From Actinomycetota bacterium (GTDB lineage: Bacteria > Actinomycetota > Thermoleophilia > Gaiellales > F1-60-MAGs149), in assembly GCA_009885805.1 (NCBI GenBank), contig VFJZ01000005.1, forward strand, positions 74,999 to 138,998: DNA of 64,000 nucleotides, given 5' to 3'. Within the stretch, counting starts at the first letter, position 1. The number at the start of each line of letters is the position of its first letter. Both the position numbers and the translations under genes were made by a program. Below are positions 1,579 to 55,594 of this stretch, one piece after another. The notes beneath the pieces were generated by a model, which saw nothing but the letters and a program-made list of their open reading frames with translations, had not been told where the DNA came from and searched no databases.

Positions 1579-2672
1579 GCGCCACCAACCGCCGCGTCCG
1601 GCTCCCAAGCGACGTTTTCGACCTCCCCGTCGAGAAGATCCGCGACGGCTATTACTCCGACGCGTACTTCAACTACACGAAGGAGATCCTCGACCGCGAC
1701 GGCCGTCGGCCGGCGGTGCTGCTGCAGGTGTTCCAGCGTAAGCACGCGGTGCTGGGCGGCATGGACGAGGCGATCGCGATCCTGCGCGAGTGCAGCGGCG
1801 ACCACGACGCGGCGGGCGCGTGGCGACCCGGCTGGGACGCGCTCGAGGTACACGCCCTCCACGACGGGGACGAGATCGAGCCGTGGGAGAGCGTGCTGAC
1901 CGTGGAGGGCGACTACCGCCTCTTCTGCCACCTCGAGACGACGTTCCTCGGCGGCCTCGCGCGCCGGACGCTGATCGCGACGAACGTCCGCGAGGTCGTC
2001 GCCGCCGCACACGGCAAGCCGATCCTCTACTTCCCGGCCCGGCACGACCACTACCGCGTCCAGACCGGCGACGGCTACGCCGCGCACATCGCGGGCGCGA
2101 TCGGCGTCTCGACTGACGCGCAGGCCTCGTGGTGGGGCGGCCGCGGACTCGGCACCGTCCCGCACGGGCTGATCGCGGCGTACGGCGGCGACACCGTGGC
2201 AGCCGCCGAGGCCTTCGCCCGGACGATCGACGAGGACGTCAACATCGTCGTGCTGGTCGACTACGACAACGACAGCGCCGGCACCGCAGTCGCGGTCGCG
2301 CGCGCTCTCGGGCCCCGTCTGTGGGGCGTGCGGCTCGACACCTCGAACACCATGGTCGATCGCTCGCTCTGGCCGCAGATGGGCCGCTTCGATCCGCGCG
2401 GCGTCAATCCGCAACTCGTCCACAACGTGCGCGAGGCGCTGGATGACGCTGGCTTCGGCGCCGTCAAGATCGTCGTCTCCGGCGGGTTCACGGCAGAGAA
2501 GATCCGCGCGTTCGAGGCGGGCGGGGTCCCCGTCGACTCCTACGGTGTCGGCTCGACGCTGATCCGCGGCGAGAACGACTTCACGGCTGATGTCGTGCTC
2601 GTCGACGGTCAGCCGCGCGGGAAGGCCGGTCGCGCGTACCAGCCGACCGACCGGCTCGAACGCGTCCTCTGA
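1575..2672 (+). CDS. Nicotinate phosphoribosyltransferase family protein (type II PRTase)
   Basis: The GTG at 1575 overlaps the PCD stop (GTGA). Sequence 'EKIRDGYYSDAYFNYTKEILDRDG...VSTDAQASWWGGRGLGTVPHGLIAAYGG...VRLDTS...KIVVSGGF' matches the archaeal/actinobacterial NAPRTase family. The upstream part of track ORF 1209..2672 is a shadow over PCD. Confidence 0.85.
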   Translation: MSATNRRVRLPSDVFDLPVEKIRDGYYSDAYFNYTKEILDRDGRRPAVLLQVFQRKHAVLGGMDEAIAILRECSGDHDAAGAWRPGWDALEVHALHDGDEIEPWESVLTVEGDYRLFCHLETTFLGGLARRTLIATNVREVVAAAHGKPILYFPARHDHYRVQTGDGYAAHIAGAIGVSTDAQASWWGGRGLGTVPHGLIAAYGGDTVAAAEAFARTIDEDVNIVVLVDYDNDSAGTAVAVARALGPRLWGVRLDTSNTMVDRSLWPQMGRFDPRGVNPQLVHNVREALDDAGFGAVKIVVSGGFTAEKIRAFEAGGVPVDSYGVGSTLIRGENDFTADVVLVDGQPRGKAGRAYQPTDRLERVL

Positions 2673-2776
2673 TCGGGCGCGGGCCGCACCCAGACGCCGT
2701 CGCCGAACGTCGCGACATAGAGGTAGTTGCCGGCCGGAACGCCATCGGTGACGAGCGGCAGTGACGGCGGAGCGGC

Positions 2777-2809
2777 GTGAAAGAACGGGATCTGATCCTT
2801 TTCTTTCAC
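2777..2809. repeat. 33-bp near-perfect palindrome (9+5 bp arms) in an unusually AT-rich patch
   Basis: The sequence gtgaaagaa-cg-ggatc-t-gatcc-tt-ttctttcac was read directly. The outer 9-bp arms are perfect complements and the inner GGATC/GATCC arms are too. It lies about 100 nt downstream of the NAPRTase stop. Confidence 0.9.
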
Positions 2810-2852
2810 GGAGTCGTGACGCTCGCGACGAGCGCCGGGGCGCCGAGCGGGG

Positions 2853-3429
2853 GTGCTGTTCCTCGCGGCGGACGGCGGCGTCCATCGACTGCGCTATGGC
2901 AACTCCACCGTCGTCGCGACAGTGCCGGGCGGAACTGATCTCGCCTGGTCGCCGGACGCGTCCGCGATCGTCGTCGCCGCACGACTCTCGACCCGGACGG
3001 ACTCGGGAGGGTCTCCTTGCCGTCCATCGCCGGATGGTGCCGCTGACAGCCGGACCTCGCCGGGCGGCGCCGGCCTATCCGGGGCATGCACCGTCTGCTC
3101 GCGCTCCTCGGCCCCCTGCTGGTTGCGCCACCGCACGCCGTCGTGGCAAGTGGGCCGCTGACGTGGCGGCTTACCCGGCGGAGGCGGACGAGCCGATGAT
3201 CGGCTATCCGATGTCGCGGGTAACGGTCGGCAGCCGCGTGTTCACGCTCTACGAGGGCGAGAAGCCGTTCGTGCACGCGCTCGACACCGTCGCCGGCACG
3301 GCTCGCTGCATCGATCTCGAGGGCATGCCGACGGGTCTCCGGCTGAAGCTGGAGCCGTACGGTCGCCCGAGCGGCGTCCGCGTCGTCGCGACCGGGTCAC
3401 ACGAGGTCGCTCGACTGCCACTACGGTGA
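2853..3429 (+). pseudogene. Possible frameshifted remnant of a beta-propeller-like secreted protein
   Basis: Protein-like text sits in two different plus frames. The frame of 2853 reads 'LFLAADGGVHRLRYGNSTVVATVPGGTDLAWSPDASAIVVAA'. The frame of 2761 reads 'MSRVTVGSRVFTLYEGEKPFVHALDTVAGTARCIDLEGMPTGLRLKLEPYGRPSGVRVVATG'. No single ORF joins them, and the text between them is Arg/Pro-rich junk. Confidence 0.3.
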
Positions 3430-3433
3430 GACG

Positions 3434-4957
3434 GTGCCGCTACTCATCGACGCCGCGGGCATCCTCGGTGAGGTTCGCGACGTCCTCATCACCTGGCTGC
3501 CGATCCTCCTGATCGTCGCGCTGCTGTACTTCATGTGGCGCGCCGTCTCGATGATGCCGCGGACCAAGCCACGCGAGGTGAAGCCCGACTCCGCGTCTCT
3601 GGTCAGCTGGGACGAGATCGCCGGCCTCGACGAGGCAAAGGACGAGCTGCGCGAGGTCGTCGACTTCCTGCGCGAACCCGAGCGGTTCGCGAAGCTCGGC
3701 GCGCGCGTGCCGAAGGGAATCCTTCTGTACGGCCCGCCCGGGACCGGCAAGACGCTACTCGCGAAGGCCGTCGCGCACGAGTCGGGCGCTGCGTTCTTCT
3801 CGCAGTCGGCATCGTCGTTCGTGGAGATGTTCGCGGGCGTCGGTGCGGGACGGATCCGAAAGCTCTTCGAGACGGCGCGCAAGCACGCGCCCGCGATCGT
3901 GTTCATCGACGAGTTGGACGCGGTGGGCGCGGCCCGGTCCGTCAACAGCTTGAACCGCGAGCAGGACCAGACGCTGAACCAGCTGCTGGTCGAGCTCGAC
4001 GGCTTTGTCGCCGATCCGCGCGTCGTCGTGCTCGCCGCGTCTAACCGCCTCGATGCGCTCGATCCCGCGCTGTTGCGCCCGGGCCGTTTCGACCGGCAGG
4101 TGCTCGTCTCGACCCCCGACCTCGCCGGCCGCAGTGCGATCCTGAAGGTCCACACGCGGGCAAAGCCGATCGGTCCCGACGTCGATCTCGAGATCGTCGC
4201 GCGCCGCACCGCCGGGCTCGGCGGTGCCGACCTCGAGAACATCTGCAACGAGGCGGCGATTCGCGCCGGCCGCACGGGTCGCCAGGTGATCGAGGCCGAG
4301 GACTTCGACTGGGCGCTCGAGCGGATCATGGCCGGCCTGCAGACGAGCCGCATCCTCACCGAGAAGGAGAAGCGCGTCGTCGCCTACCACGAGGCCGGGC
4401 ACGCCCTTGTCGGGCACCTCCTCGGCGACACGACCGCGCTGCAGAAGGTGACGATCGTCCCGCGCGGCCATGCGCTCGGATACGTCCTCAACCTTCCCGA
4501 CGAGGATCGCTACATCCGCACGCGCGAGGAACTGGTCGACGAGATCACGATGCTCCTCGCGGGTCGCGCGGCGGAGGTCGTGACCTTTGGGCGCATCTCG
4601 ACCAGCGCCGCCTCCGACCTCGAACGCGTCACCGCGATCGCGCGCGCGATGGTGTTCGAGTACGGCATGGGCGAGACGGTTTCCGCGCGGACGATGCGCG
4701 CCGACAACTACGCGTTGTCAGAGGCGACCAAAAGGCTCCGCGACGCCGAGCAGGCGCGGATCGCCGACGAGGCGTACGCCGACGCGCTCGCGCTCTGCGA
4801 GGAGCATCGCGCCGCGCTGGAGCGTCTCGCGGTCGCTCTACTGGACCGCGAGACGCTCGATCGCGCCGACGTGAAACGCCTGCTCGCCGACGTTCCGCAG
4901 CGCGCGTCGTCGGGCTCCGCCGTCGGCGTCGCCCGCGCTCAGCCCTACGACTCCTGA
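3434..4957 (+). CDS. ftsH: FtsH-family AAA+ zinc metalloprotease paralog with a short N-terminus
   Basis: 507 aa with Walker A 'GPPGTGKT', Walker B 'IVFIDELDA' and the zinc site 'HEAGHALVGH'. There is a single N-terminal TM (ITWLPILLIVALLYFMW) and no periplasmic domain. Confidence 0.9.
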   Translation: MPLLIDAAGILGEVRDVLITWLPILLIVALLYFMWRAVSMMPRTKPREVKPDSASLVSWDEIAGLDEAKDELREVVDFLREPERFAKLGARVPKGILLYGPPGTGKTLLAKAVAHESGAAFFSQSASSFVEMFAGVGAGRIRKLFETARKHAPAIVFIDELDAVGAARSVNSLNREQDQTLNQLLVELDGFVADPRVVVLAASNRLDALDPALLRPGRFDRQVLVSTPDLAGRSAILKVHTRAKPIGPDVDLEIVARRTAGLGGADLENICNEAAIRAGRTGRQVIEAEDFDWALERIMAGLQTSRILTEKEKRVVAYHEAGHALVGHLLGDTTALQKVTIVPRGHALGYVLNLPDEDRYIRTREELVDEITMLLAGRAAEVVTFGRISTSAASDLERVTAIARAMVFEYGMGETVSARTMRADNYALSEATKRLRDAEQARIADEAYADALALCEEHRAALERLAVALLDRETLDRADVKRLLADVPQRASSGSAVGVARAQPYDS

Positions 4958-19117: not shown

Positions 19118-20287
19118 GTGCCGCCAATGGACGTCATCGTCGTCGGCGGCGGGCTGATGGGGCTCGCCACCGCTCTCTACCTGGCGCGGGACGGCCACGC
19201 CACGACGCTGCTCGAAGCGCGCTCGGTCGGCCACGACCAGGGGTCGTCGCACGGGCCGAGCCGGATCATCCGCCTCACCTACCAGTCCGAGGACTACATC
19301 GCGCTTGCACGCGAGTCGTACCGGCAGTGGGGCGAACTCGCCGAGGAGGCCGGCGAGGCCCTCCTCGTCCCCTGCGGCGGGCTCGACTTCGGCCCGCCCG
19401 ACGCGACCTACCTGGCCGAGATGCGCGCCGCGATGGGCCTCGCCGGCGTCCCGTACGAGGCGGTCGACGCTGCCGAGATCCGCCGCCGCTTCCCGCAGAT
19501 CACTCCGGCAGACGACGCCGTCGGCTTCTATCAGCCGGACTTCGCGATGCTCCGCGCCGACCGCTGCATCGCCGCGCTCCACGCGCGTGCCGTCGCCGCC
19601 GGCGCGGTCGTGCGGGAGGGAGCTGCCGCCATCGCCGTCGCGCCCGACGGCGACGGCGTCCGCGTCACGACCGCGTCGGGCGACCTCACCGCCGACGCCT
19701 GCGTGCTTGCCGCCGGCTCGTGGGTGGGACCGCTGCTCGCGGGGCTCGGCCTCCATCCGCCGCTCACGGTCCTGAAGGAGCAACTCGCGTTCTTCGAGGC
19801 GGCCGATCCGACCGGCTTCATGCCCGGCCGCTTCCCGCTCTTCATCTCCCGCCTTCCGGGGACGACCACGCTCGGCTCGGCGTTCCCGATCGAAGGGGAG
19901 CCGAGCGGCGTCAAGTGCATGCTCGACCGGATCGGGCCGGAGGTCGCGTCGCCCGACGACGACGATCGCGCGATCGTCCCCGACGTCCGGCGTCGTCTCG
20001 ACGAGTGGGTGGCCGCGACGATCACGGGCCTGACGGGCCGCGTCGTCGCGGACGTCTCCTGCCGCTACACGATGACGCCCGACGAGCATTTCATCCTCGA
20101 CCGCCATCCGCTGCACCGGCAGATCGTCGTGGCGTCGGCCTGCTCCGGGCACGGCTTCAAGTTCGGGATCGTGATCGGGCGGATCCTCGCCGACCTCGCA
20201 ACGCGCGGCGCGACGGCGCACGACATCGACCGCTTCCGGCTCGACCGGCCCGCGCTAACCACCACCTGGGAGAACACGTATGCCTGA
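19118..20287 (+). CDS. Monomeric sarcosine oxidase / N-methyl-amino-acid oxidase family
   Basis: 'MDVIVVGGGLMGLATALYLARDG...SSHGPSRIIRLTY...' and 'ASACSGHGFKFG' (the Cys position used for covalent FAD in MSOX, as I recall). The start is the GTG at 19118 or the ATG at 19127. Confidence 0.85.
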   Translation: MPPMDVIVVGGGLMGLATALYLARDGHATTLLEARSVGHDQGSSHGPSRIIRLTYQSEDYIALARESYRQWGELAEEAGEALLVPCGGLDFGPPDATYLAEMRAAMGLAGVPYEAVDAAEIRRRFPQITPADDAVGFYQPDFAMLRADRCIAALHARAVAAGAVVREGAAAIAVAPDGDGVRVTTASGDLTADACVLAAGSWVGPLLAGLGLHPPLTVLKEQLAFFEAADPTGFMPGRFPLFISRLPGTTTLGSAFPIEGEPSGVKCMLDRIGPEVASPDDDDRAIVPDVRRRLDEWVAATITGLTGRVVADVSCRYTMTPDEHFILDRHPLHRQIVVASACSGHGFKFGIVIGRILADLATRGATAHDIDRFRLDRPALTTTWENTYA

Positions 20288-21065
20288 CGGCCGCCTGCAG
20301 GGCAAGGTCGCGATCGTGACGGGCGCGGCGAGCGGCATCGGCCGCGCGATCGCCGAGCGCTACGGCGCCGAGGGTGCGGCGGTCGTCGTCGCCGACCGAA
20401 ACGAGCCGGGAGCCGAGGCGGTCGCGGCGGGGATGGACGAGGCCCTCGGCGTCGCCTGCGACGTCGCCTCGCGGCCCGACTGCGACCGCCTTTTCAAGGC
20501 GACGCTCGCCCGCTTCGGTACCGTCGACGTGCTCGTCAACAACGCCGCGCTGACCGCAACGGAGCGTCACTTCCTCGAGGCCGACGACGACTGGTGGGAC
20601 TCGATCGTCGCGGTCAACCTGACGGGCGTCTACAACACGTCCGTGCGCGCCGCCCGGCTGATGGCCGCGAACCGCTCCGGCGTCATCATCAACCTGTCCT
20701 CCGGCGGCGCCTCGCGTGCCCACCGCGGCAACGCCGCCTACGACGCGGCCAAGGGCGGCGTCGAGGCGCTGACGCGCGCGCTCGCGCTCGACCTCGGCCC
20801 GTACGGCGTCCGCGTCTGCACCCTGATCCCCGGGTCGATCGACACGAAGGGACTGCCCGACGAGACCCGCCGCCAGCGCGGCGTCAACATCCCGCTGGGA
20901 CGCGTCGGCGAGCCGGACGAGCTCGCGGGACCGGCGGTGTTCCTCGCCTCCGACGACGCGCGCTACGTGACCGGCTCGACCGTGATGTCGGACGGCGGCA
21001 TGCTCGCCCAGCAGCGCTCCGCCACCGTCGACATCTTCGGGCTGGAGAAGTTCCCGGGCCTGTGA
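20280..21065 (+). CDS. Short-chain dehydrogenase/reductase (SDR)
   Basis: 'GKVAIVTGAASGIGRAIA', 'NNAA' and 'YDAAKGGV' motifs. 261 aa. Confidence 0.9.
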   Translation: MPDGRLQGKVAIVTGAASGIGRAIAERYGAEGAAVVVADRNEPGAEAVAAGMDEALGVACDVASRPDCDRLFKATLARFGTVDVLVNNAALTATERHFLEADDDWWDSIVAVNLTGVYNTSVRAARLMAANRSGVIINLSSGGASRAHRGNAAYDAAKGGVEALTRALALDLGPYGVRVCTLIPGSIDTKGLPDETRRQRGVNIPLGRVGEPDELAGPAVFLASDDARYVTGSTVMSDGGMLAQQRSATVDIFGLEKFPGL

Positions 21066-23119
21066 GGCGCGCGGGCGCCGACATCGGCGGCACGTTCACC
21101 GATCTGATCCTCGTCGACGACGACACCGGCTCGTTCCGGGTCGCGAAGGCGCTGACGACGCCCGACGACCCGTCGCGCGCCGTCGAGGAGGTACTCACGA
21201 GCGCCGCCGCCGCCGCGGGCGTGTCCGTGTCCGCGATCGACCAGGTGATCCACGGCACGACGCTCGTCACCAACGCGATCATCGAACGCAAGGGCGCGAT
21301 GACCGTGCTCCTCGCGACGGCCGGCTTCCGCGACGCGATCGAGATCGGCCGCGAGGCGCGGTTCGAGCTGTACGACATCGACCTCGAGCTGCCCGAGCCG
21401 CTCGTGCCGCGCTACCTGCGCTTCGACGTGCCCGAGCGGACGCTCTCGGACGGAACAACGCTGCGCGAGTTGGACGTCGCGTACGTGGAACGACTCGCCG
21501 CGGAGCTCGCCGAGGCCGGCGTCGAGGCGGTCGCGATCGCCTTCCTGCACAGCTATCTGAACCCCGCGGCCGAGCGCGCAGCCCGGGAGGCGATCGCCCG
21601 CGTCGCGCCGGCGCTGCGCGTCTCGATCTCCTCGGAGGTGGTCGCGGAGCTGCGCGAGTACGAGCGAACGTCGACAACGATTGCCAACGTGTACGTTCAG
21701 GGTCGCACAGAGGAATACCTCCGCGGGCTGCAGGCCCGTCTCGCCCGGCTCGGCTTCACCGGCGCCTTCCGCCTGATGCTGTCGGCGGGAGGGATCGCGA
21801 CGCCGGAGACGGCGATGCGCTTCCCGGTGCGCCTGCTCGAGTCCGGCCCCGCCGCCGGCGCCCTCGCCGCCGCCCATCACGGCACGGCGGCCGGGATCGA
21901 CGACCTGCTCAGCTTCGACATGGGCGGCACGACCGCGAAGTTCGCCGTCATCGTCGACGGCGCGCCGCTCACCGCCGGCGAGTTCGAGGTCGACCGCCGT
22001 TACCGCTTCAAGCGGGGTTCCGGCCTGCCCGTCAAGGTCGAGGTGATCGAGATGATCGAGATCGGCTCCGGCGGCGGTTCGATCGCGCGGATCGACTCGC
22101 TCGGATTGCTCCGGGTCGGGCCCGACTCGGCGGGCGCCGCACCCGGCCCGGTCGCCTACGGCCTCGGCGGCAGCGAGCCGACGGTGACCGACGCCGACCT
22201 CGTCCTGGGCTACCTCGACCCGGACTGGTTTCTCGGCGGCCGGATGGCGCTCGATCTCGCCGCGGCGCGCGAGGCGATCCGCACGCGCATCGCGGAGCCC
22301 CTCGGTCTCTCCACCGAGGCTGCGGCCTGGGGCATCCACCAGGCGGTGAACGAGTCGATGGCGAACGCGGCCCGCGTCCACGTGCTGGAACGCGGGCGTG
22401 ATCCGCGCGGCCTGCCGGTGCTCGTCTTCGGCGGGGCCGGCCCGGTCCACGGGCACCGTGTCGCGAAGGCGCTCGGCGCGCCGGCGATGATCGCGCCGCT
22501 CGGCGCGGGCGTGCTGTCCACCGTCGGCTTCCTGGTCGCGCCGCTGGCGTTCGACTTCGTCCGCTCCTGGCCGGCCGCGCTCGCGGGGCTCGACTGGACG
22601 CGGGCGCGCGCCCTGCTCGCGGAGATGGAGGCCGAGGGCGCGGCCGTGCTCGCGACGTCCGGCGTCCCCGCGGCGGAGACCACGCACGTCCGCGAGGCGG
22701 ACATGCGCTACGCCGGGCAGGGACACGAGATCCGCGTGCCGTGGCCGGCCGGGGACGATCCGGCGGCGGTGCGGGAGGCGTTCGAGACCGAGTACCGGCG
22801 ATTGTACGGACGGCTCGGCCCGGACGGCGTCGCGCTCGAGATCGTCTCCTGGCGTGTGCGGTCGAGCGGGCCACGACCGTCGGTCAACCTCGTCGTCGTC
22901 GGCGAGGCGGGCGAGGCGCGCAAGGGCACCCGTGACGCCTGGCATCCGGAGCGCGGCGGGATGGCGCCGACGCCGGTCTTCGACCGCTACCGGCTCGCGC
23001 GCGGTGCGACGCTCGAGGGGCCGGCGATCGTCGAGGAGCGCGAGTCGACGGTCGTGGTCGGCCCGGACACCTCCGCCCGGGTCGACGAACGTTGGAACCT
23101 GATCGTCACGCCGCGCTGA
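21062..23119 (+). CDS. hyuA: Hydantoinase A / oxoprolinase family (HyuA, N-methylhydantoinase A-like)
   Basis: The GTG at 21062 overlaps the SDR stop (GTGA). Sequence: 'GADIGGTFTDLILVDDDTGSFRVAKALTTPDDPS...LLSFDMGGTTAKF...'. 685 aa. Confidence 0.9.
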   Translation: MRRAGADIGGTFTDLILVDDDTGSFRVAKALTTPDDPSRAVEEVLTSAAAAAGVSVSAIDQVIHGTTLVTNAIIERKGAMTVLLATAGFRDAIEIGREARFELYDIDLELPEPLVPRYLRFDVPERTLSDGTTLRELDVAYVERLAAELAEAGVEAVAIAFLHSYLNPAAERAAREAIARVAPALRVSISSEVVAELREYERTSTTIANVYVQGRTEEYLRGLQARLARLGFTGAFRLMLSAGGIATPETAMRFPVRLLESGPAAGALAAAHHGTAAGIDDLLSFDMGGTTAKFAVIVDGAPLTAGEFEVDRRYRFKRGSGLPVKVEVIEMIEIGSGGGSIARIDSLGLLRVGPDSAGAAPGPVAYGLGGSEPTVTDADLVLGYLDPDWFLGGRMALDLAAAREAIRTRIAEPLGLSTEAAAWGIHQAVNESMANAARVHVLERGRDPRGLPVLVFGGAGPVHGHRVAKALGAPAMIAPLGAGVLSTVGFLVAPLAFDFVRSWPAALAGLDWTRARALLAEMEAEGAAVLATSGVPAAETTHVREADMRYAGQGHEIRVPWPAGDDPAAVREAFETEYRRLYGRLGPDGVALEIVSWRVRSSGPRPSVNLVVVGEAGEARKGTRDAWHPERGGMAPTPVFDRYRLARGATLEGPAIVEERESTVVVGPDTSARVDERWNLIVTPR
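22991..23090 (+). repeat. Direct repeat copy 1 (the functional 3' end of hyuA)
   Basis: My ungapped hand alignment to 23931..24030 (offset exactly 940 bp) gives 85/100 identical bases. Confidence 0.85.
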
Positions 23120-23434
23120 GCAGTTCGACCGCGCGGCGGATGCCGAGCGCGGCGGCGATCCTCACAACCCGCAGGGGCGCCCGCCTTGGAGCCTGAGCCT
23201 CGAGCGTCCCGGGTCATCCATGGCGCCCTTCCGGTGGTATCGTCCCGAACGGCTTCGTGGAAACGCTCGACGAACATCCGAGCGCGTCGGGTGGCACTGT
23301 CATTGCTGCGACTGCGGGTGGCCATCGATGACGCCGCGTCGGATGTGCAGCGCGATCAAGTCGCGGCGCTCCTACGACGAGGCCGCTCCGCTGATCCTCG
23401 AGCGTGTCGCCGACCGCGCGGCTCAAGGAGTGGC

Positions 23435-23674
23435 GTGAGCCCGACCGTCTTCCGTGAAGGCCCGTTCCGGTTCTTCTTCTTCTTGCGTGAGGAGTCGCGA
23501 CTGCACATTCACGTTTCCTCGGCAGACGGCGAGGCCAAGTTCTGGCTCGAGCCCACGATCGAGGTTGCGCGCAGTCACGGGCTCACCGCCCTCGACCTGC
23601 GACGCGCGACGGAAGCAATCGAACGACACGAGGAGAAGATCCGGGATGCCTGGACCAGTCACTTCGGCACCTGA
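23435..23674 (+). CDS. DUF4160 domain protein (putative toxin-antitoxin-like pair member)
   Basis: The GTG at 23435 gives 79 aa: 'VSPTVFREGPFRFFFFLREESRLHIHVSSADGEAKFWLEPTIEVARSHGLTALDLRRATEAIERHEEKIRDAW'. The 'HIHV...AKFWL' core is typical of DUF4160. Confidence 0.8.
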   Translation: MSPTVFREGPFRFFFFLREESRLHIHVSSADGEAKFWLEPTIEVARSHGLTALDLRRATEAIERHEEKIRDAWTSHFGT

Positions 23675-24362
23675 GGTAACTAACATCTCGCTGCATGGCT
23701 TCTGGCTGTTCATCGACGAACGTGAACTCTTCCTGCCCTTCGATAACTTCCCGTGGTTCAGGCGCGCCGCAATCGACGCGATCCTGCGCGTTGAGCGGCC
23801 GCATCCCGACCACCTCCGTTGGCCGGATCTCGATGTTGACCTGACAATCGATTCTCTCGAGCACCCCGGGGACTACCCCCTTGTGGCGAAAATCTGAGAC
23901 GAGAAGTCCCGCACGAGTCATCCAAAGCCTCGGCTCGCGCCCGGCGCGACGGTCGGGGGCTCGGCGATCGTGGAGGAACGCGAGTCGACAGTCGCGGTCG
24001 GCCCTGACACCTCGGCGCTGGTCGACGAGCACGAGCGGGCAGTCGAGGTCCTCAGCGAGGGCGACATAGGCCGCGGCGTAGGCGGTCAGGTTGTTGCGGA
24101 GCGCCCAGACGCGCGAGGCGCGCGGCGTCACTGGAAAGCGGCGAATGCGAGCGCGCCGAAGATCCTCGATCGCGAATTCGGCGCGCGACCGGTCGAGTTG
24201 CCCACCGCGGACCTGCTCGCGAAGCAGATTCAGTACCTCGTAGTCGATGAGGTCGGGAGCGGTGATCGATCTGGCGCGCCGAACGCGCACCCACACGCCG
24301 TCGCCGTAGGGCCCGTCGTCGGCGAGCACGGGGCCGAGCACCGAGGCGTCGATGACGATCAC
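23583..24362 (-). CDS. vapC: PIN-domain VapC toxin; native C-terminus apparently replaced, so the ORF reads through antisense DNA
   Basis: The GTG at 24362 overlaps the vapB stop (GTGA). Sequence 'VIVIDASVLG...DLIDYEVLNLL...LTAYAAAYVALAEDLDCPLVLVD' carries the PIN acidic residues. From about residue 111 the ORF is antisense to hyuA repeat copy 2 and then to DUF2442, ending only at 23583 (259 aa against about 130 expected). Confidence 0.7.
   Translation of the reverse strand: MIVIDASVLGPVLADDGPYGDGVWVRVRRARSITAPDLIDYEVLNLLREQVRGGQLDRSRAEFAIEDLRRARIRRFPVTPRASRVWALRNNLTAYAAAYVALAEDLDCPLVLVDQRRGVRADRDCRLAFLHDRRAPDRRAGREPRLWMTRAGLLVSDFRHKGVVPGVLERIDCQVNIEIRPTEVVGMRPLNAQDRVDCGAPEPREVIEGQEEFTFVDEQPEAMQRDVSYLRCRSDWSRHPGSSPRVVRLLPSRVAGRGR
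23646..23897 (+). CDS. DUF2442 domain protein (partner of DUF4160)
   Basis: 83 aa from the ATG at 23646, overlapping the upstream gene by 29 nt: 'VTNISLHGFWLFIDERELFLPFDNFPWFRRAAIDAILRVERPHPDHLRWPDLDVDLTIDSLEHP', the typical DUF2442 pattern. Confidence 0.75.
   Translation: MPGPVTSAPEVTNISLHGFWLFIDERELFLPFDNFPWFRRAAIDAILRVERPHPDHLRWPDLDVDLTIDSLEHPGDYPLVAKI
23931..24030 (+). repeat. Direct repeat copy 2 (displaced, diverged remnant of the hyuA 3' end)
   Basis: It translates in the hyuA frame as 'RLAPGATVGGSAIVEERESTVAVGPDTSALVDE', against 'RLARGATLEGPAIVEERESTVVVGPDTSARVDE' in hyuA. Homology stops at 24030, 29 nt short of the equivalent of the hyuA stop. Confidence 0.85.
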
Positions 24363-24595
24363 CGGGACGGATCGTCGCGGTCGGCGCGAATGAGACGCAC
24401 CGCGTCCTCGCCGGAGAGCGATCCGCCGCGCCTCGTCTCGATACGCGCGAGCCACTCCGCGACCGTCGGCTGCGTCGCCCGCTCCTCGAGGTGGAGGCGG
24501 AGCAGTTCCTGAAGGCTCTGCCCGTTGGCCGCCGCGCGCACCCGGAGCCGGCGCGCGGCATCCTCGGAGACGTTTCGTACCTGGAGTGTCGCCAT
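24359..24595 (-). CDS. vapB: VapB antitoxin (ribbon-helix-helix, Arc/FitA-like)
   Basis: 78 aa from the ATG at 24595: 'MATLQVRNVSEDAARRLRVRAAANGQSLQELLRLHLEERA'. Confidence 0.8.
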   Translation of the reverse strand: MATLQVRNVSEDAARRLRVRAAANGQSLQELLRLHLEERATQPTVAEWLARIETRRGGSLSGEDAVRLIRADRDDPSR

Positions 24596-24632
24596 GCATG
24601 CAATCGAGCGCTGTTCGCGCGTCTTTGCAACC

Positions 24633-26411
24633 ATGGCATCATCCCGCCCGATGGACGTCCTGCGCCTCGAGATGCTCTGGAACCGGCTGCTGTCCGTCGT
24701 CGACGAGCAGCAGGTGACGCTGATGCGAACGGCGTTCTCGACGGTCGTGCGCGAGTCGCAGGACCTCGCCTGCGGCGTCTTCGACCGGCGCGGGAACATG
24801 ATGGCCCAGTCGATGACCGGCACGCCCGGCCACATCAACACGATGGCGACCGGCATGCGCCACTTCCTCGCGGCGCACCCGCCGGACACGCTCGACGAGG
24901 GCGACGTCCTGATCACCAACGACCCCTGGCAGACCGCCGGACAGATCAACGACATGACGGTCGTCACACCGGTCTTCCACCGCGGCCGCGTGGTCGCCTT
25001 CTTCGCCTCGTGCTGCCACTCGCCGGACGTCGGCGGGCGCGTCTACGGCGGCGCCGCGAACGAGATCTACGAGGAGGGCATCCGGATCCCGATCATGCAC
25101 CTCGTTCGGCGCGGCGAGCCGAACGCGACGCTGGTCGCGATGATCCGCGCGAACGTCCGCGTGCCGGCGGAGACGATCGGCGACCTGTGGGCGCAGATGG
25201 CCTGCAACGACGTCGGCGGGCGCGACCTCGTGCGCTTCCTGGAGGAGTTCGACCTCACCGACTGCGAGGAGCTGTCCGACGAGATCCTGCGCCGCACCGA
25301 GGCTGCGCTGCGCGCCGCGATCCGGGCGTTGCCCGACGGCACGTACCGCAACGAGGCCTGGTCGGACGGGTTCGGCGGCGAGCCGGTGCACATCGTCGTC
25401 GCCGTCACGATCGACGGCGACGCCGTGCAGATCGACTACGCCGGCTCGTCGCCGCAGAGCCCGTCCGGCATCAATGTCGTCCTCAACTACACGCAGGCGT
25501 ACTCGTCGTTCGCGATCAAGGCGGCTCTGAACCCGGAGGTGCCCCACAACGAGGGCGCGTTCCGGCCGGTGACGACGACGGCGCCAGCGGGGTCGATCCT
25601 CAACTGCCTCGAACCGGCCGCGGTCGCCGCCCGGCACCTCGTCGGGCACCTGTTGCCATGCACCATCTTCGGTGCGCTCGCGAAGGCGATGCCGGGGCGG
25701 CTGATGGCCGGTGGCGCCGAGGCGAGCTGGCTGACCGTGTGGCGCGGCACCTGGCCCGGCCGCGACGACCTGTTCACGTTCACGCTCTTCCAGTCGGGCG
25801 GTGCCGGCGCCCGGGCAGCGAAGGACGGCCTGCAGACGAACGGCTTCCCGAGCGGTGTCGCCGGCGTCCCGGCCGAGGTGTACGAGACGCGGACGCCGCT
25901 CGTGATGCACCGCAAGGAACTGCTGATGGATTCGGGCGGGGCGGGGCGCTGGCGCGGCGGCCTCGCGATGCAGACCGAGTCGAGCTACCGCGGCGATGGA
26001 CACTGGGGCGTGTCGACCCTGGTCGAACGGACGCGGTTCGCCGGCCAGGGGATCGACGGCGGCCGGCCGGGCGCGCTCGGGGAGTACGTGCTCGGCGACG
26101 GTGAGCATCCGCCCGCCAAGACGATGGTTCGGTTGGCTAATGACGCGCACGTGCATCTGCGACTACCCGGCGGCGCCGGCTACGGCGACCCGCAGCTTCG
26201 CCCGCCAGCCGACGTCCTGCGCGACGTCGTGCACGGCTACGTGTCGCTCGACGCTGCTGCCGCCGAGTACGGTGTCGTGATCAGGTACGGCGGCGGCGAT
26301 CGCCTCGTTCGGCTACCGCACCACTACGCCGTCGACGAGACGGCGACCGCCCTGTTGCGGAACGAGACTCACGGGACCCGCACATCGACGCCCGTCGCCG
26401 ACGCGACGTAG
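24633..26411 (+). CDS. hyuB: Hydantoinase B / oxoprolinase family (HyuB, N-methylhydantoinase B-like)
   Basis: 'MASSRPMDVLRLEMLWNRLLSVVDEQQVTLMRTAFSTVVRESQDLACGVFD...ITNDPWQTAGQINDMTVVTPVF...GGAGYGDP'. The start is the ATG at 24633 or at 24651. Confidence 0.9.
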   Translation: MASSRPMDVLRLEMLWNRLLSVVDEQQVTLMRTAFSTVVRESQDLACGVFDRRGNMMAQSMTGTPGHINTMATGMRHFLAAHPPDTLDEGDVLITNDPWQTAGQINDMTVVTPVFHRGRVVAFFASCCHSPDVGGRVYGGAANEIYEEGIRIPIMHLVRRGEPNATLVAMIRANVRVPAETIGDLWAQMACNDVGGRDLVRFLEEFDLTDCEELSDEILRRTEAALRAAIRALPDGTYRNEAWSDGFGGEPVHIVVAVTIDGDAVQIDYAGSSPQSPSGINVVLNYTQAYSSFAIKAALNPEVPHNEGAFRPVTTTAPAGSILNCLEPAAVAARHLVGHLLPCTIFGALAKAMPGRLMAGGAEASWLTVWRGTWPGRDDLFTFTLFQSGGAGARAAKDGLQTNGFPSGVAGVPAEVYETRTPLVMHRKELLMDSGGAGRWRGGLAMQTESSYRGDGHWGVSTLVERTRFAGQGIDGGRPGALGEYVLGDGEHPPAKTMVRLANDAHVHLRLPGGAGYGDPQLRPPADVLRDVVHGYVSLDAAAAEYGVVIRYGGGDRLVRLPHHYAVDETATALLRNETHGTRTSTPVADAT

Positions 26412-27040
26412 GCGACGGCGGCCATGCCGACGAACAGGCCGTGACCGGCGACGCCCGGGATCGCCGAGATCGCGGTCGCCAGGGCGTCGGGATCCTCGAT
26501 CGGGTCGAAGCGGCAGTCGAGGATGACGTTCCCCTCATCCGTCGTGAACCCGTCCCGCCGGGTCGAGTCACCGCCCAACGCTGCGAGCAGGCGAGCGCAG
26601 ACCGGTTCGGCGAAGCGGATCACCTCGACGGGTAGCGGCGCTCGCTCTCCGAGCCGGCCAACGCACTTCGACTCATCGACGACGACGACGAACCGGTCCG
26701 CCGCGACCGCCACAACCTTCTCCCGCAGCAGCGCGCCACCGAGTCCCTTCGTCAGGGCGAGGCCCGGCCCGATCTCGTCCGCGCCGTCGAGGCAGACGGC
26801 GAGGCGCGGGCGCTCGGCGAGGGTCGCGAGCGGGATGCCGTGCGTGCGCGCGAGCACCGCCGTCGCCTCGGAGGTCGGGACGCCGACGACATCGCGGAGC
26901 CGGCCGTCGCGCAGGCGCTCGCCGATCGCGATCACGACGAACGCCGCCGTCGACCCCGAACCGAGGCCCACCGTCATGCCGCTCCGCACCTCGGCAGCCA
27001 CGGCCGCCTCGGCGGCACTGCGCTTCGCCGCTCCACTCAT
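26369..27040 (-). CDS. rpiA: Ribose-5-phosphate isomerase A
   Basis: 223 aa from the ATG at 27040: 'GMTVGLGSGSTAAFVV...DGADEI...LTKGLGGALLREKVVA...'. It is convergent with hyuB and overlaps its 3' end by 43 nt. Confidence 0.85.
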   Translation of the reverse strand: MSGAAKRSAAEAAVAAEVRSGMTVGLGSGSTAAFVVIAIGERLRDGRLRDVVGVPTSEATAVLARTHGIPLATLAERPRLAVCLDGADEIGPGLALTKGLGGALLREKVVAVAADRFVVVVDESKCVGRLGERAPLPVEVIRFAEPVCARLLAALGGDSTRRDGFTTDEGNVILDCRFDPIEDPDALATAISAIPGVAGHGLFVGMAAVAYVASATGVDVRVP

Positions 27041-47071: not shown

Positions 47072-49615
47072 CTACTCGTACTGGAGGGCCTGGAGCACGT
47101 CCAGCCGCGCCGCGCGGCGCGCGGGGAGGATCGCCGCCAGCACGCCGCAGACGACGGCGGCGAGCAGGTAGATGACGATCTGCGCGACGGGTAGGACGAA
47201 CCCGAGCCCGTCGACCGCGCGCGTCGCGAGGAAGCCGAAGACCATCCCGACGGCGACGCCGATGACCGCGCCGATGACCGCTGTGATGACGCTCTCGTAG
47301 CGCACGATCCAGCGCAGCTGCCGTCGCGTCGCGCCAACTGCGCGGAGCAGACCGATCTCACGCGTCCGCTCGTAGATCGACAGGACAAGGGTGTTCACGA
47401 GGCCGAGCAGTGAGATCACCACGCTGAAAGCGAGTAGCGCGTAGAGCAGTGCCAGGAACTGGTCGAGCTGGCGCTCGAAGCGCTGGAGGGCTGCGCGGTT
47501 CGACTCCGCCCGGACCTGCGGGAACGCAGTCTCGAGCGCGTCCACCACCGCCTGATCCGTCGCCTTGCGATCGACGCCCTCGCCAAACCGGACGAACGCG
47601 ATCCCGATCTCCGGCTTCTCGCCGAGTGAGTCGTACGCGTCCCGCGAGACGATGAACGTCTTGAAGATGGTCGGGGCGGAGTAGACACCACGAACGGTGA
47701 ACGTCGCCGAACGTCCCGATTCGGTGGCGACGGCAAACGTCGAGCCGACCGTCAGCGATCGCCCCTTCGCCCACTCCCTCTCGACGAGCGCGCCGTCGGC
47801 GCCCAGTTGCGTCACGAGGCTGTCGTCGCCGTTGACCCAGTCCATGCGATACGACTTCGTCAGCTCCGGCCCGGTCGCGGCGAGGGTGTCGTCGCGGCCG
47901 TCGATTCGCACCGCGAGCGTCTCGACCGCCACGACGGCGGACACACCCTCGACGCCCGCGACCGTCCCGATGACATCGGGCGGCATCACGTCGAACGACT
48001 TCGACTGGACGAGCATGTCCGACAGCAACGACGTCGAGAGCGTGCTGCGGAGCTGCTCCTTGAAGCCGGTCGTGAAGATCGCCGCCCACGTGATGAGCGC
48101 AACGGAGATCATCAGCGCCGCTGCCGTCACCGCCGTCCGGCCGGGGTTGCGGACGGTGTTCTCCGTCGCAATTCGCCCGGGCAGACCCGCCGCGCGAAGC
48201 GACCGACCGATGAGCCGCGCGAGTGGTGGGACGAGCCAGCGAGAACCCATTGCGACGCCGACCATCGTCAGCAGGACGCCAGCTCCCATCGCCGCGAGCG
48301 CCTGCCGGGGAGTACCGTCCGTGAAGAAGCCGATCGACGCCACGCCAAGGCCGAGCAGCACCATGACGGGTGCCAGCCAGGGCACGAACCGACCGCCGCG
48401 GGCCGGTGGCGGCGCGGTGCCCTCGCGGACGGCGGCGATCGGCGGGACGCGAGTCGCACGCAGGCCGGGTGCGAGGGCGGCGGCCAGCGTCACACCGACG
48501 CCGACAAGGAGGCAGATCGCGACGGTCCGCGGCGCGATCGCGAGATCGGCGCCCGGCAGACCGAACCCGAGGGCATCGAAGGCGACCAGGAGTAGGCTCG
48601 CAAAGCCGAGGCCGGCGACGATGCCGACCACCGTCGCGACGAGCGATACGACGATCGCCTCCCCGAGAACGCTCGCGAGGATCTGTCGGCGCGTCGCGCC
48701 GAGCGTCCGCAGCATCGCAAGCTCGCGGACGCGGTGGCCAATCGTCATCGAGAAGGCGTTGAAGATGATGAAGGCCGAGACGAAGATCGCGACGCCCGCG
48801 AAGGCGAGGAGGGCGGGACGGAGGAAGCCGTTGATCGAGTCGGAGATGCGCCTGGCCTCGGCGACGGCACGCTCACGGCCGGTCTCGACCGTGAGGTCGG
48901 CGGGCAGGGCCGCGGTGAGCCGTCGCCGCAACTCCTCGACCGAGACACCCTCGTCCGCGGCGACGTCGATCTCGTGGACCAGCCCCCGGCTGCGGAACCA
49001 CCGCTGCACGTCGTTGATGTCGGCCAGCACGACGGTCGCCCCGCCGAAGTCAACAGCTGACGTGAAGATGCCGACGATCGTCACCGGCTGTGCCCGCTGG
49101 TCGGTCGCCATCAAGGCGGTGTCGCCGACGCGGAGGTCACCGCGATCGGCGACCGACTTGAGGATCGCGACCTCACCCGGCGCCTCGACCTGCCTCCCCT
49201 CGATGTAGGTGCCGGTGTCGAACGGCGCGCCGGTCGAGTTGAAGACGAGCGGCGGCGCTCCGCCCGTCGGACCGAGGAACTTCGACTCGCCATCTCGCTC
49301 GATGACGAGGCCGCCGAAGCCCTGGATGAGTGGCTGCGCGACGGCGACACCGTCCACGGCAATGACGTCGATCAGCACCGACTGGTCGAACGGGACGATG
49401 TCAGCGTTGTCGTCCGTCGCGAACGCGGCTGCTTTCGTCACGACGATATCGGTCGTGGCGCGCGTCTCGACGAAGATGTTCTCGAACGCCGTCCCGATCT
49501 GGTCGGTCAGCGCGAAGGTGCCGGAGATCATCGCGACGCCGAGGACGATCGCGAGGGTTGTCAGGGTGCTGCGCAGCTTCCGCGCGAGCATTCCCCGCAG
49601 CGTCACGCGCCGCAC
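47072..49615 (-). CDS. ABC transporter permease, double FtsX domain (MacB-like), tandem copy A
   Basis: 847 aa from the GTG at 49615 (homologous to the start of copy B). By eye it is roughly three quarters identical to copy B along its whole length. Confidence 0.85.
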   Translation of the reverse strand: MRRVTLRGMLARKLRSTLTTLAIVLGVAMISGTFALTDQIGTAFENIFVETRATTDIVVTKAAAFATDDNADIVPFDQSVLIDVIAVDGVAVAQPLIQGFGGLVIERDGESKFLGPTGGAPPLVFNSTGAPFDTGTYIEGRQVEAPGEVAILKSVADRGDLRVGDTALMATDQRAQPVTIVGIFTSAVDFGGATVVLADINDVQRWFRSRGLVHEIDVAADEGVSVEELRRRLTAALPADLTVETGRERAVAEARRISDSINGFLRPALLAFAGVAIFVSAFIIFNAFSMTIGHRVRELAMLRTLGATRRQILASVLGEAIVVSLVATVVGIVAGLGFASLLLVAFDALGFGLPGADLAIAPRTVAICLLVGVGVTLAAALAPGLRATRVPPIAAVREGTAPPPARGGRFVPWLAPVMVLLGLGVASIGFFTDGTPRQALAAMGAGVLLTMVGVAMGSRWLVPPLARLIGRSLRAAGLPGRIATENTVRNPGRTAVTAAALMISVALITWAAIFTTGFKEQLRSTLSTSLLSDMLVQSKSFDVMPPDVIGTVAGVEGVSAVVAVETLAVRIDGRDDTLAATGPELTKSYRMDWVNGDDSLVTQLGADGALVEREWAKGRSLTVGSTFAVATESGRSATFTVRGVYSAPTIFKTFIVSRDAYDSLGEKPEIGIAFVRFGEGVDRKATDQAVVDALETAFPQVRAESNRAALQRFERQLDQFLALLYALLAFSVVISLLGLVNTLVLSIYERTREIGLLRAVGATRRQLRWIVRYESVITAVIGAVIGVAVGMVFGFLATRAVDGLGFVLPVAQIVIYLLAAVVCGVLAAILPARRAARLDVLQALQYE

Positions 49616-49617
49616 TG

Positions 49618-49653
49618 CTACTCGAGCCCCATGACGACGTCCCGGATCTGATC
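49618..49653 (-). other. Vestige of the ABC ATPase 3' end carried along by the tandem duplication
   Basis: The minus strand reads 'gat cag atc cgg gac gtc gtc atg ggg ctc gag tag' = DQIRDVVMGLE*. The real ATPase ends 'DQILDVVKGLE*' at 52247. Both are followed 2 nt later by the permease GTG. Confidence 0.7.
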
Positions 49654-52244: not shown

Positions 52245-52246
52245 GA

Positions 52247-52998
<752 letters not shown>

Positions 52999-53069
52999 GC
53001 CCGCAGGGTACCGCCGGTCGACGGCACGGAACGTCGTCCGAGCGGCTGATCTGCCTCGTTCTTGCGGCT

Positions 53070-53164
53070 GATCAGCGGTACACGTACACCGTCTCGCCGA
53101 CGGGCGACTGGCGGTAGAGCCAGTCCGCCGCCCACATCGGGACGCGCGCGCAGCCGTGGCTGGC
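53070..53164 (-). repeat. Direct repeat copy 1: displaced remnant of the L,D-transpeptidase 3' end
   Basis: My ungapped alignment to 54372..54466 (offset 1302 bp) gives 86/95 identical bases. It still encodes '...HGCARVPMWAADWLYRQSPVGETVYVYR*'. Confidence 0.85.
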
Positions 53165-53208
53165 GATGCTGTTGTTGATGTGATACTCTTTACATGAACT
53201 ACTGAAAT

Positions 53209-53218
53209 GGGGGGGGGG
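53209..53218 (+). repeat. G10 homopolymer immediately upstream of the islet's first gene
   Basis: Counted directly: g at 53209-53218, followed by 'agcacaATG' (ATG at 53225). The tract ends in an SD-like GGAG. An upstream ATG at 53207 would read through it as MGGGST. Confidence 0.95.
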
Positions 53219-53224
53219 AGCACA

Positions 53225-54307: not shown

Positions 54308-54371
54308 TCGTCCCCGTCGGTGGCGCGAACTCCCCCGGTGGGGGTTCGCGCCATCGACTGGGCGCTGCCTG

Positions 54372-54466
54372 GATCAGCGGTAGACGTAGACGGTCTCGCC
54401 GACCGGGGACTGGCGGTACAGCCAGTCCGCCGCCCACATCGGAATCCGCGCGCAGCCGTGGCTGGC
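54372..54466 (-). repeat. Direct repeat copy 2: functional 3' end of the L,D-transpeptidase gene
   Basis: See 53070..53164. It encodes '...HGCARIPMWAADWLYRQSPVGETVYVYR*'. Confidence 0.85.
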
Positions 54467-55534: not shown

Positions 55535-55594
55535 CAGATCGGCGAGAGGGGCCCTGGGGTTGAGCACGAGTGATCGGCGTGCTACACCGGCGGT

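Follow-up and report, generated by a model that had tools for sequence, protein, structure and literature searches.

The window, by which we mean the whole 64,000-nucleotide stretch of DNA that was analysed, carries genes for two hydantoinase subunits, hyuA (21062–23119, forward strand) and hyuB (24633–26411, forward strand). The hyuA gene is intact and encodes a hydantoinase/oxoprolinase A subunit of 685 aa with the Pfam domains Hydant_A_N, Hydantoinase_A and Hydant_A_C (100% identical to P0001 and 94% to P0002), and hyuB matches Pfam Hydantoinase_B at E=3e-149; its start may lie at 24651, as in the gene call for the sibling strain L143. The last 43 codons and the stop of hyuA (22991–23119) fall within a left repeat, S_left (22991–23159, forward strand), which also holds, on the opposite strand, a displaced remnant of a vapC 3′ end (23106–23159, ending ...RIAAALGIRRAVELLSAA*). 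This is followed by an insert, X, which begins with a 275-nt spacer upstream of a predicted toxin gene (23160–23434, forward strand), continues with two overlapping genes and finishes in a 33-nt tail (23898–23930, forward strand) that is identical in L143 and has no homolog among the comparison loci. The spacer likewise lacks a homolog, showing no similarity to any of the comparison loci, and scans of the spacer and insert returned no Rfam family and no sigma-70 promoter or terminator consensus. Beyond the insert lie a displaced hyuA fragment that forms a truncated right repeat (23931–24032, forward strand; the first 102 nt of a 182-nt S_right) and, on the reverse strand, two further genes. 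The first is a vapC remnant, identified by comparison with L143 as a PIN toxin gene cut off after 110 of its 133 codons (24033–24362), whose open frame continues antisense across the repeat and the insert to 23583. The second is an intact vapB antitoxin gene (24359–24595), which encodes a FitA-like ribbon-helix-helix protein of 78 aa (Pfam PF22513, E=7.6e-10; the NCBIfam VapB match is weak).

The domains and order of the two genes within the insert point to a DhiTA-type toxin-antitoxin module, toxin first and antitoxin second. The DUF4160 gene (23435–23674, forward strand; 79 aa; PF13711, E=1.5e-14, residues 11–73) is the predicted DhiT-like toxin and the DUF2442 gene (23646–23897, forward strand; 83 aa; PF10387, E=1.5e-13) the predicted DhiA-like antitoxin; they overlap by 29 nt, as they do in L058–L060 and L143. 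DUF4160/DUF2442 is a validated toxin-antitoxin family that stabilises plasmids, and for its Dickeya and Thermus members it has been shown that the product of the first gene is a toxin, that the product of the second neutralises it and that the complex represses its own promoter (PMC8198452, PMC12724237). Apart from the spacer, this operon is the only cargo. More than 100 homologs of equal length to the DUF4160 protein were found, the best non-self identity being 81%, and a search for other copies of the cargo, suggested in an earlier note on this DNA, located the module in unrelated contexts where nucleotide homology to the window is confined to the two ORFs. This suggests that the module moves as a unit. 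A PADLOC defence-system search gave no match, and nor did a nucleotide search of the insert against plasmids.

The earlier note had reported a gapless 100-nt repeat of the hyuA end at an offset of 940. Realignment of 22991–23090 with 23931–24030 reproduces it, with 85/100 identities, zero gaps and sharp edges (flanking identity of 0/10 just to the left and 2/10 just to the right), and our recount in the hyuA frame gives the same split of the 15 differing codons, nine synonymous and six non-synonymous. A repeat search of 20000–27000 returned the hyuA-end pair as the longest repeat (98 nt, 86%), and a self-BLAST of the whole window, which gave three repeats in total, recovered it at E=1e-25. GC content between the copies is 0.61–0.64, compared with 0.715 for the window and 0.74 for hyuA, so that the description of the intervening DNA as lower in GC and carrying a DUF4160/DUF2442 pair is upheld by GC and Pfam. 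The source is probably a metagenome-assembled contig and strain variants co-occur, which raises the question of whether the copies or their order arose from mis-assembled strain mixtures, as the earlier note had also considered. A Logan assembly (SRR8670876, L057) is 100% identical over 22969–24032, and therefore a single contig spans both copies and the insert; this contig ends at 24032, which is a deletion junction in the window (see below). However, the same order is found throughout three independent Logan assemblies from three runs (L057, L143 and L144), and the longest exact run shared between the copies is 11 nt in the window and 20 nt in L143, which is too short to confuse a k-mer assembler. 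An assembly artefact is accordingly a negligible prospect.

Empty sites, which the earlier note had proposed to seek in relatives, were found in L056, L061 and L062. In each of these, hyuA (94% aa identity to the window in L056 and 79% in L061/L062) is followed by convergent PIN(-)-RHH(-) genes, that is vapC-vapB, and then by hyuB, without the DUF pair. Their homology to the window ends at 23158/23159 (S_left is collinear with L056 to 23159 and with L061 to 23158) and resumes at 24335/24346. It can be seen that in this clade hyuA and hyuB are parted by convergent vapC-vapB, with the vapC stop overlapping the hyuA end by 8–14 nt. The separation of hyuA and hyuB by 1.5 kb in the window is therefore real, as originally described, but approximately 0.6 kb of it is vapBC that is ancestral in the clade and not insert.

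The sibling strains L143 and L144 (97–99% identical) carry the insertion with neither neighbour gene damaged. Here the insert is 773 nt, in keeping with the earlier estimate of less than 1 kb, and is flanked by 182-nt direct repeats that are 82% identical and spaced 955 nt. The repeat is made up of the final 43 codons of hyuA and the final 22 of vapC; in L143 the end of hyuA is supplied by the left copy and that of vapC by the right, and the repeat edges coincide exactly with the edges of the insert. Both hyuA and vapC, a 133-aa PIN gene, are thus intact in L143/L144. The L143 vapC matches PIN at E=2.2e-7, whereas the window fragment has no Pfam match, and a FitA-like RHH vapB stands beside the PIN gene in L143, as expected of VapBC, in which an RHH antitoxin gene lies upstream of the PIN toxin gene and overlaps it. 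These comparisons show that insertion of approximately 773 nt at the overlap took place in a common ancestor, before the window strain split from L143/L144. The suggestion that the hyuA 3′ end was the target holds in so far as that end is duplicated, although the duplicated target is in fact the convergent hyuA/vapC overlap. Overlapping convergent genes with no spare base can evidently take an insert if the overlap is duplicated. The repeats are 15–18% diverged, so the event is old, and this would suit a local duplication of the hyuA end that was older than the insert and unrelated to it. Such a history is nevertheless very improbable, given the exact agreement of repeat and insert edges in L143 and the single copy, without insert, in L056, L061 and L062; a duplicate lacking the insert, which the earlier note had envisaged in relatives, was not seen there.

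Base-by-base comparison with L143 revealed later changes in the window strain. Window positions 20661–24032 align to L143 1–3387, and within this span a 15-nt deletion (gap at ~23146) has shortened the left repeat of the window. L143 S_right is 3286–3467, and a second deletion, of 85 nt (L143 3388–3472), falls between 24032 and 24033 of the window (junction 24031–24034), with a 2-nt microhomology, AC. It removed the last 80 nt of S_right, and with them the vapC stop and the 22 codons that precede it. In the window the left repeat now measures 167–169 nt and the right one 100–102 nt. The 100-nt length of the copy is therefore secondary, a product of the deletion that killed vapC, and the window vapB is predicted to be without a working toxin partner. 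A reading initially made from L056 only, in which an insertion of 873 nt had taken the place of 18 nt of vapC and brought a 100-nt hyuA filler copy, was overturned by L143. A 6–9-nt microhomology (GTCGAC...) at the right joint was also discarded, since L143 shows the 85-nt deletion and its 2-nt microhomology. Divergence between the window and L143 is uneven, at 0.5–1% overall, 13% in 22945–23152 and ~8% in 20761–21160, from which we conclude that homologous exchange is active in this population; a patch of ~200 nt of exchanged sequence now lies over the left repeat of the window. The locus thus provides a rare natural series of three states (empty, insertion with intact neighbours, and decay) in which every junction can be read. 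It also bears on the replacement of resident modules, since one strain, once a new addiction module had arrived, lost its vapC toxin gene and was left with an orphan antitoxin.

The lack of an integrase, a transposase and terminal inverted repeats, noted previously, was borne out by Pfam and repeat scans. The only Pfam matches in 23120–24030 are DUF4160 and DUF2442, no recombinase or integrase gene was found in the islet or adjoining it, and the genes flanking the islet are syntenic with L061. The insert has no ORF resembling a transposase, and a comparison of its two ends for inverted matches gave a best score of 8 against a shuffle mean of 8.1; a transposon, IS or MITE was therefore rejected. 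An integron cassette was rejected in the same way, since 23100–24100 contains zero RYYYAAC motifs and a single stray GTTRRRY, inside DUF2442, and there is no intI near the islet. No arm repeats were found at the islet.

The islet is a known kind of insertion from which, here, the recombinase gene is absent, and site-specific integration into hyuA is possible. An integrative element could have used a tyrosine or serine integrase targeted to the hyuA/vapC 3′ ends, with its own copy of them in attP, and then decayed; cis-mobilizable elements (CIMEs), att-flanked remnants of integrative elements, have by definition lost their integration and transfer genes and keep attL and attR (PMC6323972). Alternatively, a mini-element could have been served by an integrase in trans. 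The attL/attR-like footprint described in the earlier note stands to the extent that the insertion is derived and that direct repeats, the full 182 nt including the hyuA stop, bracket the L143/L144 insert exactly and hold complete gene ends. The last 36 nt of the L143 repeat are 34/36 identical, including the 20-nt exact run near the vapC-side end, which might be a core; this run would be expected just as well from a conserved vapC C-terminus. Elsewhere, DhiTA-like pairs in other phyla are placed at conserved-gene 3′ ends with displaced end copies, namely at dnaE (L074/L077, 45 nt), rsmE (L107, 81 nt) and tRNA-Met (L122, 76 nt), and these 3′ ends are typical integrase targets; in L122 an IntI-like integrase lies beside the tRNA-Met pair. 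Against this, the islet and its surroundings hold no recombinase gene, and its flanks are syntenic with relatives. Moreover, there is nothing but a toxin-antitoxin pair between the repeats at the hyuA/vapC, dnaE and rsmE islets, and it is unlikely that large elements decayed independently to such equally bare islets in L074/L077 and L107. Taken together with the resident appearance of the hyuA end described below, these observations lead us to regard an integrative element as rather unlikely.

If an element had brought a replacement end, as the earlier note proposed, the end now attached to hyuA should be the foreign one. That end is as close to the empty-site relative as is the rest of hyuA (89% in L143). 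S_left diverges from L056 by 13.5%, no more than the whole 3′ third of hyuA (10–15%) and in line with L056–L061 rates, and there is no significant mosaic breakpoint in hyuA relative to L056 (maximum chi-square p ~0.2). A foreign hyuA end is not supported, for lack of such a breakpoint, and the attached end looks resident, not imported. A foreign vapC tract arriving with the insert was also considered, as vapC is anomalously diverged from L056 (47% aa identity compared with 94% for hyuA), but with no vapC relative closer than 50% it was set aside. The displaced hyuA fragment, with five synonymous to eight non-synonymous lineage-specific codon changes, looks like a product of neutral decay. The 18% copy divergence in L143 is made up of ~11% neutral decay of the displaced fragment and ~6% change in the working copy, and the four-fold site divergence between window and L056 is 0.20. 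Copy divergence would thus date roughly to the split from L056, with a foreign copy not required. We found no donor allele to match the right copy.

Two copies that started out identical, and are approximately as old as the L056 split, would fit both this divergence and the 5:8 ratio of changes, and the 9:6 count in the window is compatible with them (p=0.21). They would be expected from break repair, in which a staggered or two-ended break at the overlap, resolved by end joining or unequal sister-chromatid joining, duplicated 182 nt and captured a stray toxin-antitoxin fragment. Both novel junctions would then stem from one event, and the duplication lengths of comparable islets (45, 81, 95 and 182 nt) vary as they would with random break spacing. 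However, no microhomology or filler is recognisable at the two insert junctions, and the chance capture of an intact, promoter-bearing operon is demanding. The window has a second islet built in the same way, at 53070–54466, and here seven of the eight differing codons between the gene-end copies are synonymous, which rejects copies identical at birth there (p ~0.01) and fits an end brought in from another lineage. Break repair is in our view an unlikely origin for the islet. Exact-protein look-ups with hyuA and hyuB (both starts of each), vapB and the secreted protein of the second islet gave no match.

We give about an even chance to insertion and duplication together through a crossover inside a junction copy carried by incoming DNA. 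This DNA, probably circular, would have come from a related strain and carried a copy of the junction segment beside the toxin-antitoxin pair, and a single reciprocal crossover with the chromosome inside that segment would yield both the insert and the duplication. The process would amount to Campbell-type insertion-duplication, of which homology-facilitated illegitimate recombination is the linear equivalent; host recombination would suffice and no element-encoded recombinase would be needed. Toxin-antitoxin addiction would have penalised loss of the islet by recombination of repeat with repeat until the repeats diverged. The crossover leaves aside how the junction segment and the toxin-antitoxin DNA came together, for which a first event of another kind is needed.

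Toxin-antitoxin modules move between genomes, and a route without mobility genes of their own is poorly documented. That the window holds another such islet, and that comparable mini-islets occur in other phyla, hints that the process recurs and would lend itself to a systematic survey. With considerable doubt, we suggest that DhiTA-type pairs may constitute a class of mini-islets without a recombinase, in which each operon is accompanied by a copy of a host gene end. A single crossover in that copy would let them in at the 3′ end of a conserved gene, and the host gene would survive because its end is duplicated. They would spread between strains as small circles and would be retained by addiction, as cells that lost them through recombination of the repeats would die. 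The design is matched by four independent loci, hyuA/vapC (182 nt), dnaE, rsmE and tRNA-Met. If the class is real, it offers a concrete route for the long-puzzling mobility of transposase-less toxin-antitoxin modules.

The e14 element and phage 21 of E. coli show prophage-type integration into the 3′ end of icd with a substitute end. As there, a diverged direct duplicate of a 3′ end brackets the insert, with the gene left intact and a partial copy of its end displaced beyond the insert. By contrast, the window islet has no integrase, its insert is only 0.77 kb, its duplicate takes in the ends of two convergent genes that overlap, and the hyuA-attached end looks resident. Integron cassettes with DUF4160/DUF2442, found in the metagenome loci L066, L076, L087, L100 and L105, are similarly compact units between repeated recombination sites, whereas the flanking repeat of the window islet is host coding sequence, without attC cores or intI. 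With CIMEs the islet shares direct-repeat flanks and the lack of integrase and transfer genes. However, CIMEs belong to known ICE families with defined att sites and partner ICEs, while no partner element or recombinase is known for the islet, and its repeats, at 182 nt, are long and match at only 82%. The cargo resembles dhiTA of Dickeya dadantii and the ‘persistence enhancing module’ of a Thermus thermophilus plasmid in having DUF4160 followed by an overlapping DUF2442, each of ~80–90 aa, and the DhiTA module occurs on plasmids and in many unrelated chromosomal contexts. It differs from the characterised examples in its host, a high-GC uncultured bacterium, and its likeness to them is one of domains and gene order. 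Finally, homology-facilitated illegitimate recombination and the C-terminal displacement arrays of Rhs and T6SS effector-immunity loci likewise place foreign DNA beside a conserved anchor gene, with an orphaned 3′ piece downstream and no need for a dedicated recombinase (PMC3240628, PMC5361080). In Rhs/T6SS arrays the incoming DNA replaces the working 3′ part with one of the same gene family, whereas at the hyuA/vapC overlap unrelated cargo has been added and both neighbours have been kept whole by the duplication.

The duplicate of the hyuA 3' end described in the earlier note was recovered exactly as stated, with bases 22991–23090 matching 23931–24030 at 85 of 100 positions, gapless and at an offset of 940 nt, and with nine of the 15 codon differences being synonymous in the hyuA frame. 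The edges of the repeat are sharp, identity dropping straight away beyond either end. This is the longest repeat of the region and one of only three found by self-BLAST of the whole 64 kb (E = 1e-25). Upstream lie an SDR gene (20280–21065) and hyuA itself (21062–23119). Between the copies are the overlapping genes for a DUF4160 protein (23435–23674) and a DUF2442 protein (23646–23897), in DNA that is indeed lower in GC (0.61–0.64, against 0.715 in the window). Beyond them come, on the minus strand, a VapC-like open frame starting at 24362 and a FitA-like RHH antitoxin gene, vapB (24359–24595), and then hyuB, from 24633 or 24651. Both copies and the insert are found together on one Logan contig (L057, run SRR8670876) that is identical to 22969–24032, which argues against an assembly artefact.

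In 55 species-level relatives, the hyuA of which is at most 69% identical, hyuB directly follows hyuA. The earlier note had proposed a search for empty sites, and three were identified: in L056 (hyuA 94% identical at the amino acid level) and in L061 and L062 (79%), hyuA is followed by PIN toxin and RHH antitoxin genes on the opposite strand and then by hyuB, with no DUF pair and no second copy of the hyuA end. In these three loci the PIN stop and the end of hyuA overlap by 14 or 8 nt. The three are homologous to the window past the hyuA stop as far as 23158/23159 and again from 24335/24346. This gene order and homology indicate that vapBC already stood between hyuA and hyuB in the ancestor of this clade, and that the DUF pair was inserted later.

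Two further Logan contigs, L143 (SRR32626291) and L144 (SRR32626290), were retrieved by exact-protein look-up with the DUF2442 protein as query, and are 97–98.7% identical to window positions 20661–26416. The gene order in L143 is hyuA, DUF4160, DUF2442, an intact 133-codon PIN gene (Pfam match E = 2.2e-7), vapB and hyuB. Here the insert is 773 nt (2513–3285) and is bracketed by 182-nt direct repeats (2331–2512 and 3286–3467) of 82.4% identity. Each repeat is made up of the final 43 hyuA codons, the stop codon and another 53 nt; read on the other strand, it covers the final 22 vapC codons, as far back as that for the C-terminal Asp. From this content, the left copy completes hyuA and bears a useless vapC tail, and the right copy completes vapC and bears a useless hyuA tail with its stop codon kept (...STVAVGPDTSALVDEHWNSVVTPR*).

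Relative to L143, the window strain has lost 85 nt (L143 3388–3472), at a joint between 24032 and 24033 with a microhomology of AC only. With it went the terminal 80 nt of the right repeat, and hence the final 22 vapC codons and the stop, so that only 100 nt of the repeat had been visible in the window and the vapC frame now runs without a stop down to 23583; in its remaining 110 codons the PIN match is lost. The left repeat has a 15-nt deletion compared with L143. Since L057 ends exactly at 24032, the deletion joint is outside its coverage; this contig starts within a variable patch of the left repeat (22969) and ends at the deletion junction, which may reflect the presence of both deletion and non-deletion strains in SRR8670876.

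Mismatches to L143 number only 3 in the insert and right copy (about 870 positions) and amount to 0.5–1% over the rest of the locus, but 28 cluster in 22945–23152 (13%) and a second cluster lies at 20761–21160. The divergence of these two patches (8–13%) is evidence that short homologous exchanges among strains are frequent in the population. In part the left-repeat patch resembles the right copy (GACACC), and intrachromosomal conversion may contribute to it. Separately, window 24033–24445, aligned with L056 2258–2690, shows far more divergence in vapC and in the last, C-terminal third of vapB than around them: VapC is 47% identical to that of L056, equal to its distance from the far more remote L061, against 94% for HyuA, and there is only one difference in the first 50 residues of VapB. 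No relative of the window VapC closer than 50% was found, and the pattern looks like an allelic swap of vapC together with the toxin-binding part of vapB.

Against L056, identity is about 89% for the left copy of L143 and about 83% for its right copy. The left copy diverges as much as the whole 3' third of hyuA, with no detectable recombination breakpoint in hyuA against L056. The displaced hyuA fragment has accumulated about five synonymous and eight non-synonymous changes of its own, at some 9–12% of sites, a pattern that looks neutral. At four-fold sites the window and L056 have diverged by 0.20, which gives each lineage about 0.1; as the changes in the displaced fragment are of similar extent, the insertion dates from about the time at which L056 split off. 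The 9:6 ratio of synonymous to non-synonymous differences fits one constrained and one free copy (p = 0.21), and nothing in these data requires a diverged donor copy.

DUF4160 and DUF2442 proteins together form type II toxin-antitoxin systems, in which the toxin gene comes first (PMC8198452, PMC12724237). The dhiTA pair of Dickeya dadantii is active; the antitoxin represses the promoter of the pair, an effect that is stronger with the toxin-antitoxin complex (PMC8198452). A Thermus plasmid module with the same two domains confers plasmid stabilisation, its first ORF being neutralised by the second (PMC12724237). The cargo family is widespread, also on plasmids, and is conserved in length at 79 amino acids, with a best non-self match of 81%. 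In the nearest relative, from a Solirubrobacteraceae MAG, the pair sits among unrelated genes and nucleotide homology to the window covers the two ORFs only. Neither the 275-nt spacer nor the 33-nt tail of the insert has a homolog among the loci compared.

Direct repeats on both sides were present at 21 of the 68 metagenome DUF4160/DUF2442 loci with enough flank (two in a reversed-sequence control). REP-like elements or integron attC arrays account for many of these. In L066, L076, L087, L100 and L105 the pairs are integron gene cassettes, with repeats bearing RYYYAAC...GTTRRRY cores after the pair and recurring along the locus (five copies in L087). In other bacteria the end of a gene next to the pair is duplicated: L107 carries two copies of the rsmE 3' end (81 nt, 97.5% identical; 418–498 and 1055–1135), and L074 and L077 a displaced 45-nt copy, about 85% identical, of the last 14 codons and stop of dnaE (L074 1128–1172 and 1659–1703). 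At all three loci the toxin-antitoxin pair is the sole content between the repeats. In L122 two identical 76-nt tRNA-Met gene copies bracket the pair (219–294 and 866–941), only the upstream one being called by ARAGORN, and a partial third copy (1875–1905) lies beside an IntI-like integrase gene (1918–2934). Judged from these sequences, gene-end duplicates around such pairs may form a wider pattern, which we regard as a lead.

The window contains a second islet built in the same way, with repeats at 53070–53164 and 54372–54466 (86/95 identity, 1302 nt apart) and an insert at 53165–54371 (GC 0.656). The repeat corresponds to the last 30 codons, stop and 2 nt of a minus-strand L,D-transpeptidase gene (54374–56320; YkuD and PG_binding_1 domains). 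Eight codons differ between the copies, seven synonymously and one as I to V, which argues that each copy evolved as the end of a functional gene (for duplication in place, p is about 0.01). Within the insert, an ORF with a signal peptide runs from 53207 or 53225 to 53758, and a zinc-protease-like gene (53740–54135/54047–54307; motif HEEGHPLGLGH) is apparently frameshifted; no integrase was found in 53070–54466. An adjoining ABC ATPase gene (52247–53000) appears split between two frames, perhaps by a frameshift or through a sequencing error, with the Walker A half in ORF 52591–53490 and the signature-motif half in ORF 52247–52576. Two tandem minus-strand paralogues of about 850–900 codons (47074–49653 and 49709–52282; 78% nucleotide identity over 2.6 kb), located upstream of an ABC ATPase gene, look like duplicated ABC transporter permease genes.

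At the hyuA islet the edges of repeat and insert coincide and the insertion left both neighbouring genes whole; neither a recombinase gene nor an attC site or inverted repeat is found there. Such an islet could arise by a single crossover within a junction copy on incoming DNA, which would be a Campbell-type insertion-duplication or, if the DNA were linear, homology-facilitated illegitimate recombination (PMC3240628, PMC5361080). We favour this single crossover, at about an even chance, since homologous patches are frequent in the population, the unit is bare, and the synonymous-only pattern of the second islet points to an imported homologous end; it leaves the origin of the very first junction-plus-cargo molecule unexplained. 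The same structure can result from break repair, if the stretch between two breaks was duplicated and the fragment captured. Toxin-antitoxin addiction would plausibly have guarded the islet against deletion between the repeats. A site-specific element, decayed or served in trans, can also produce this structure, in the manner of CIMEs (PMC6323972). We conclude that the feature is a real toxin-antitoxin mini-islet with target-end duplication, here decayed and well explained by the comparative data, and that in its design it is a variation on kinds of insertion already known.
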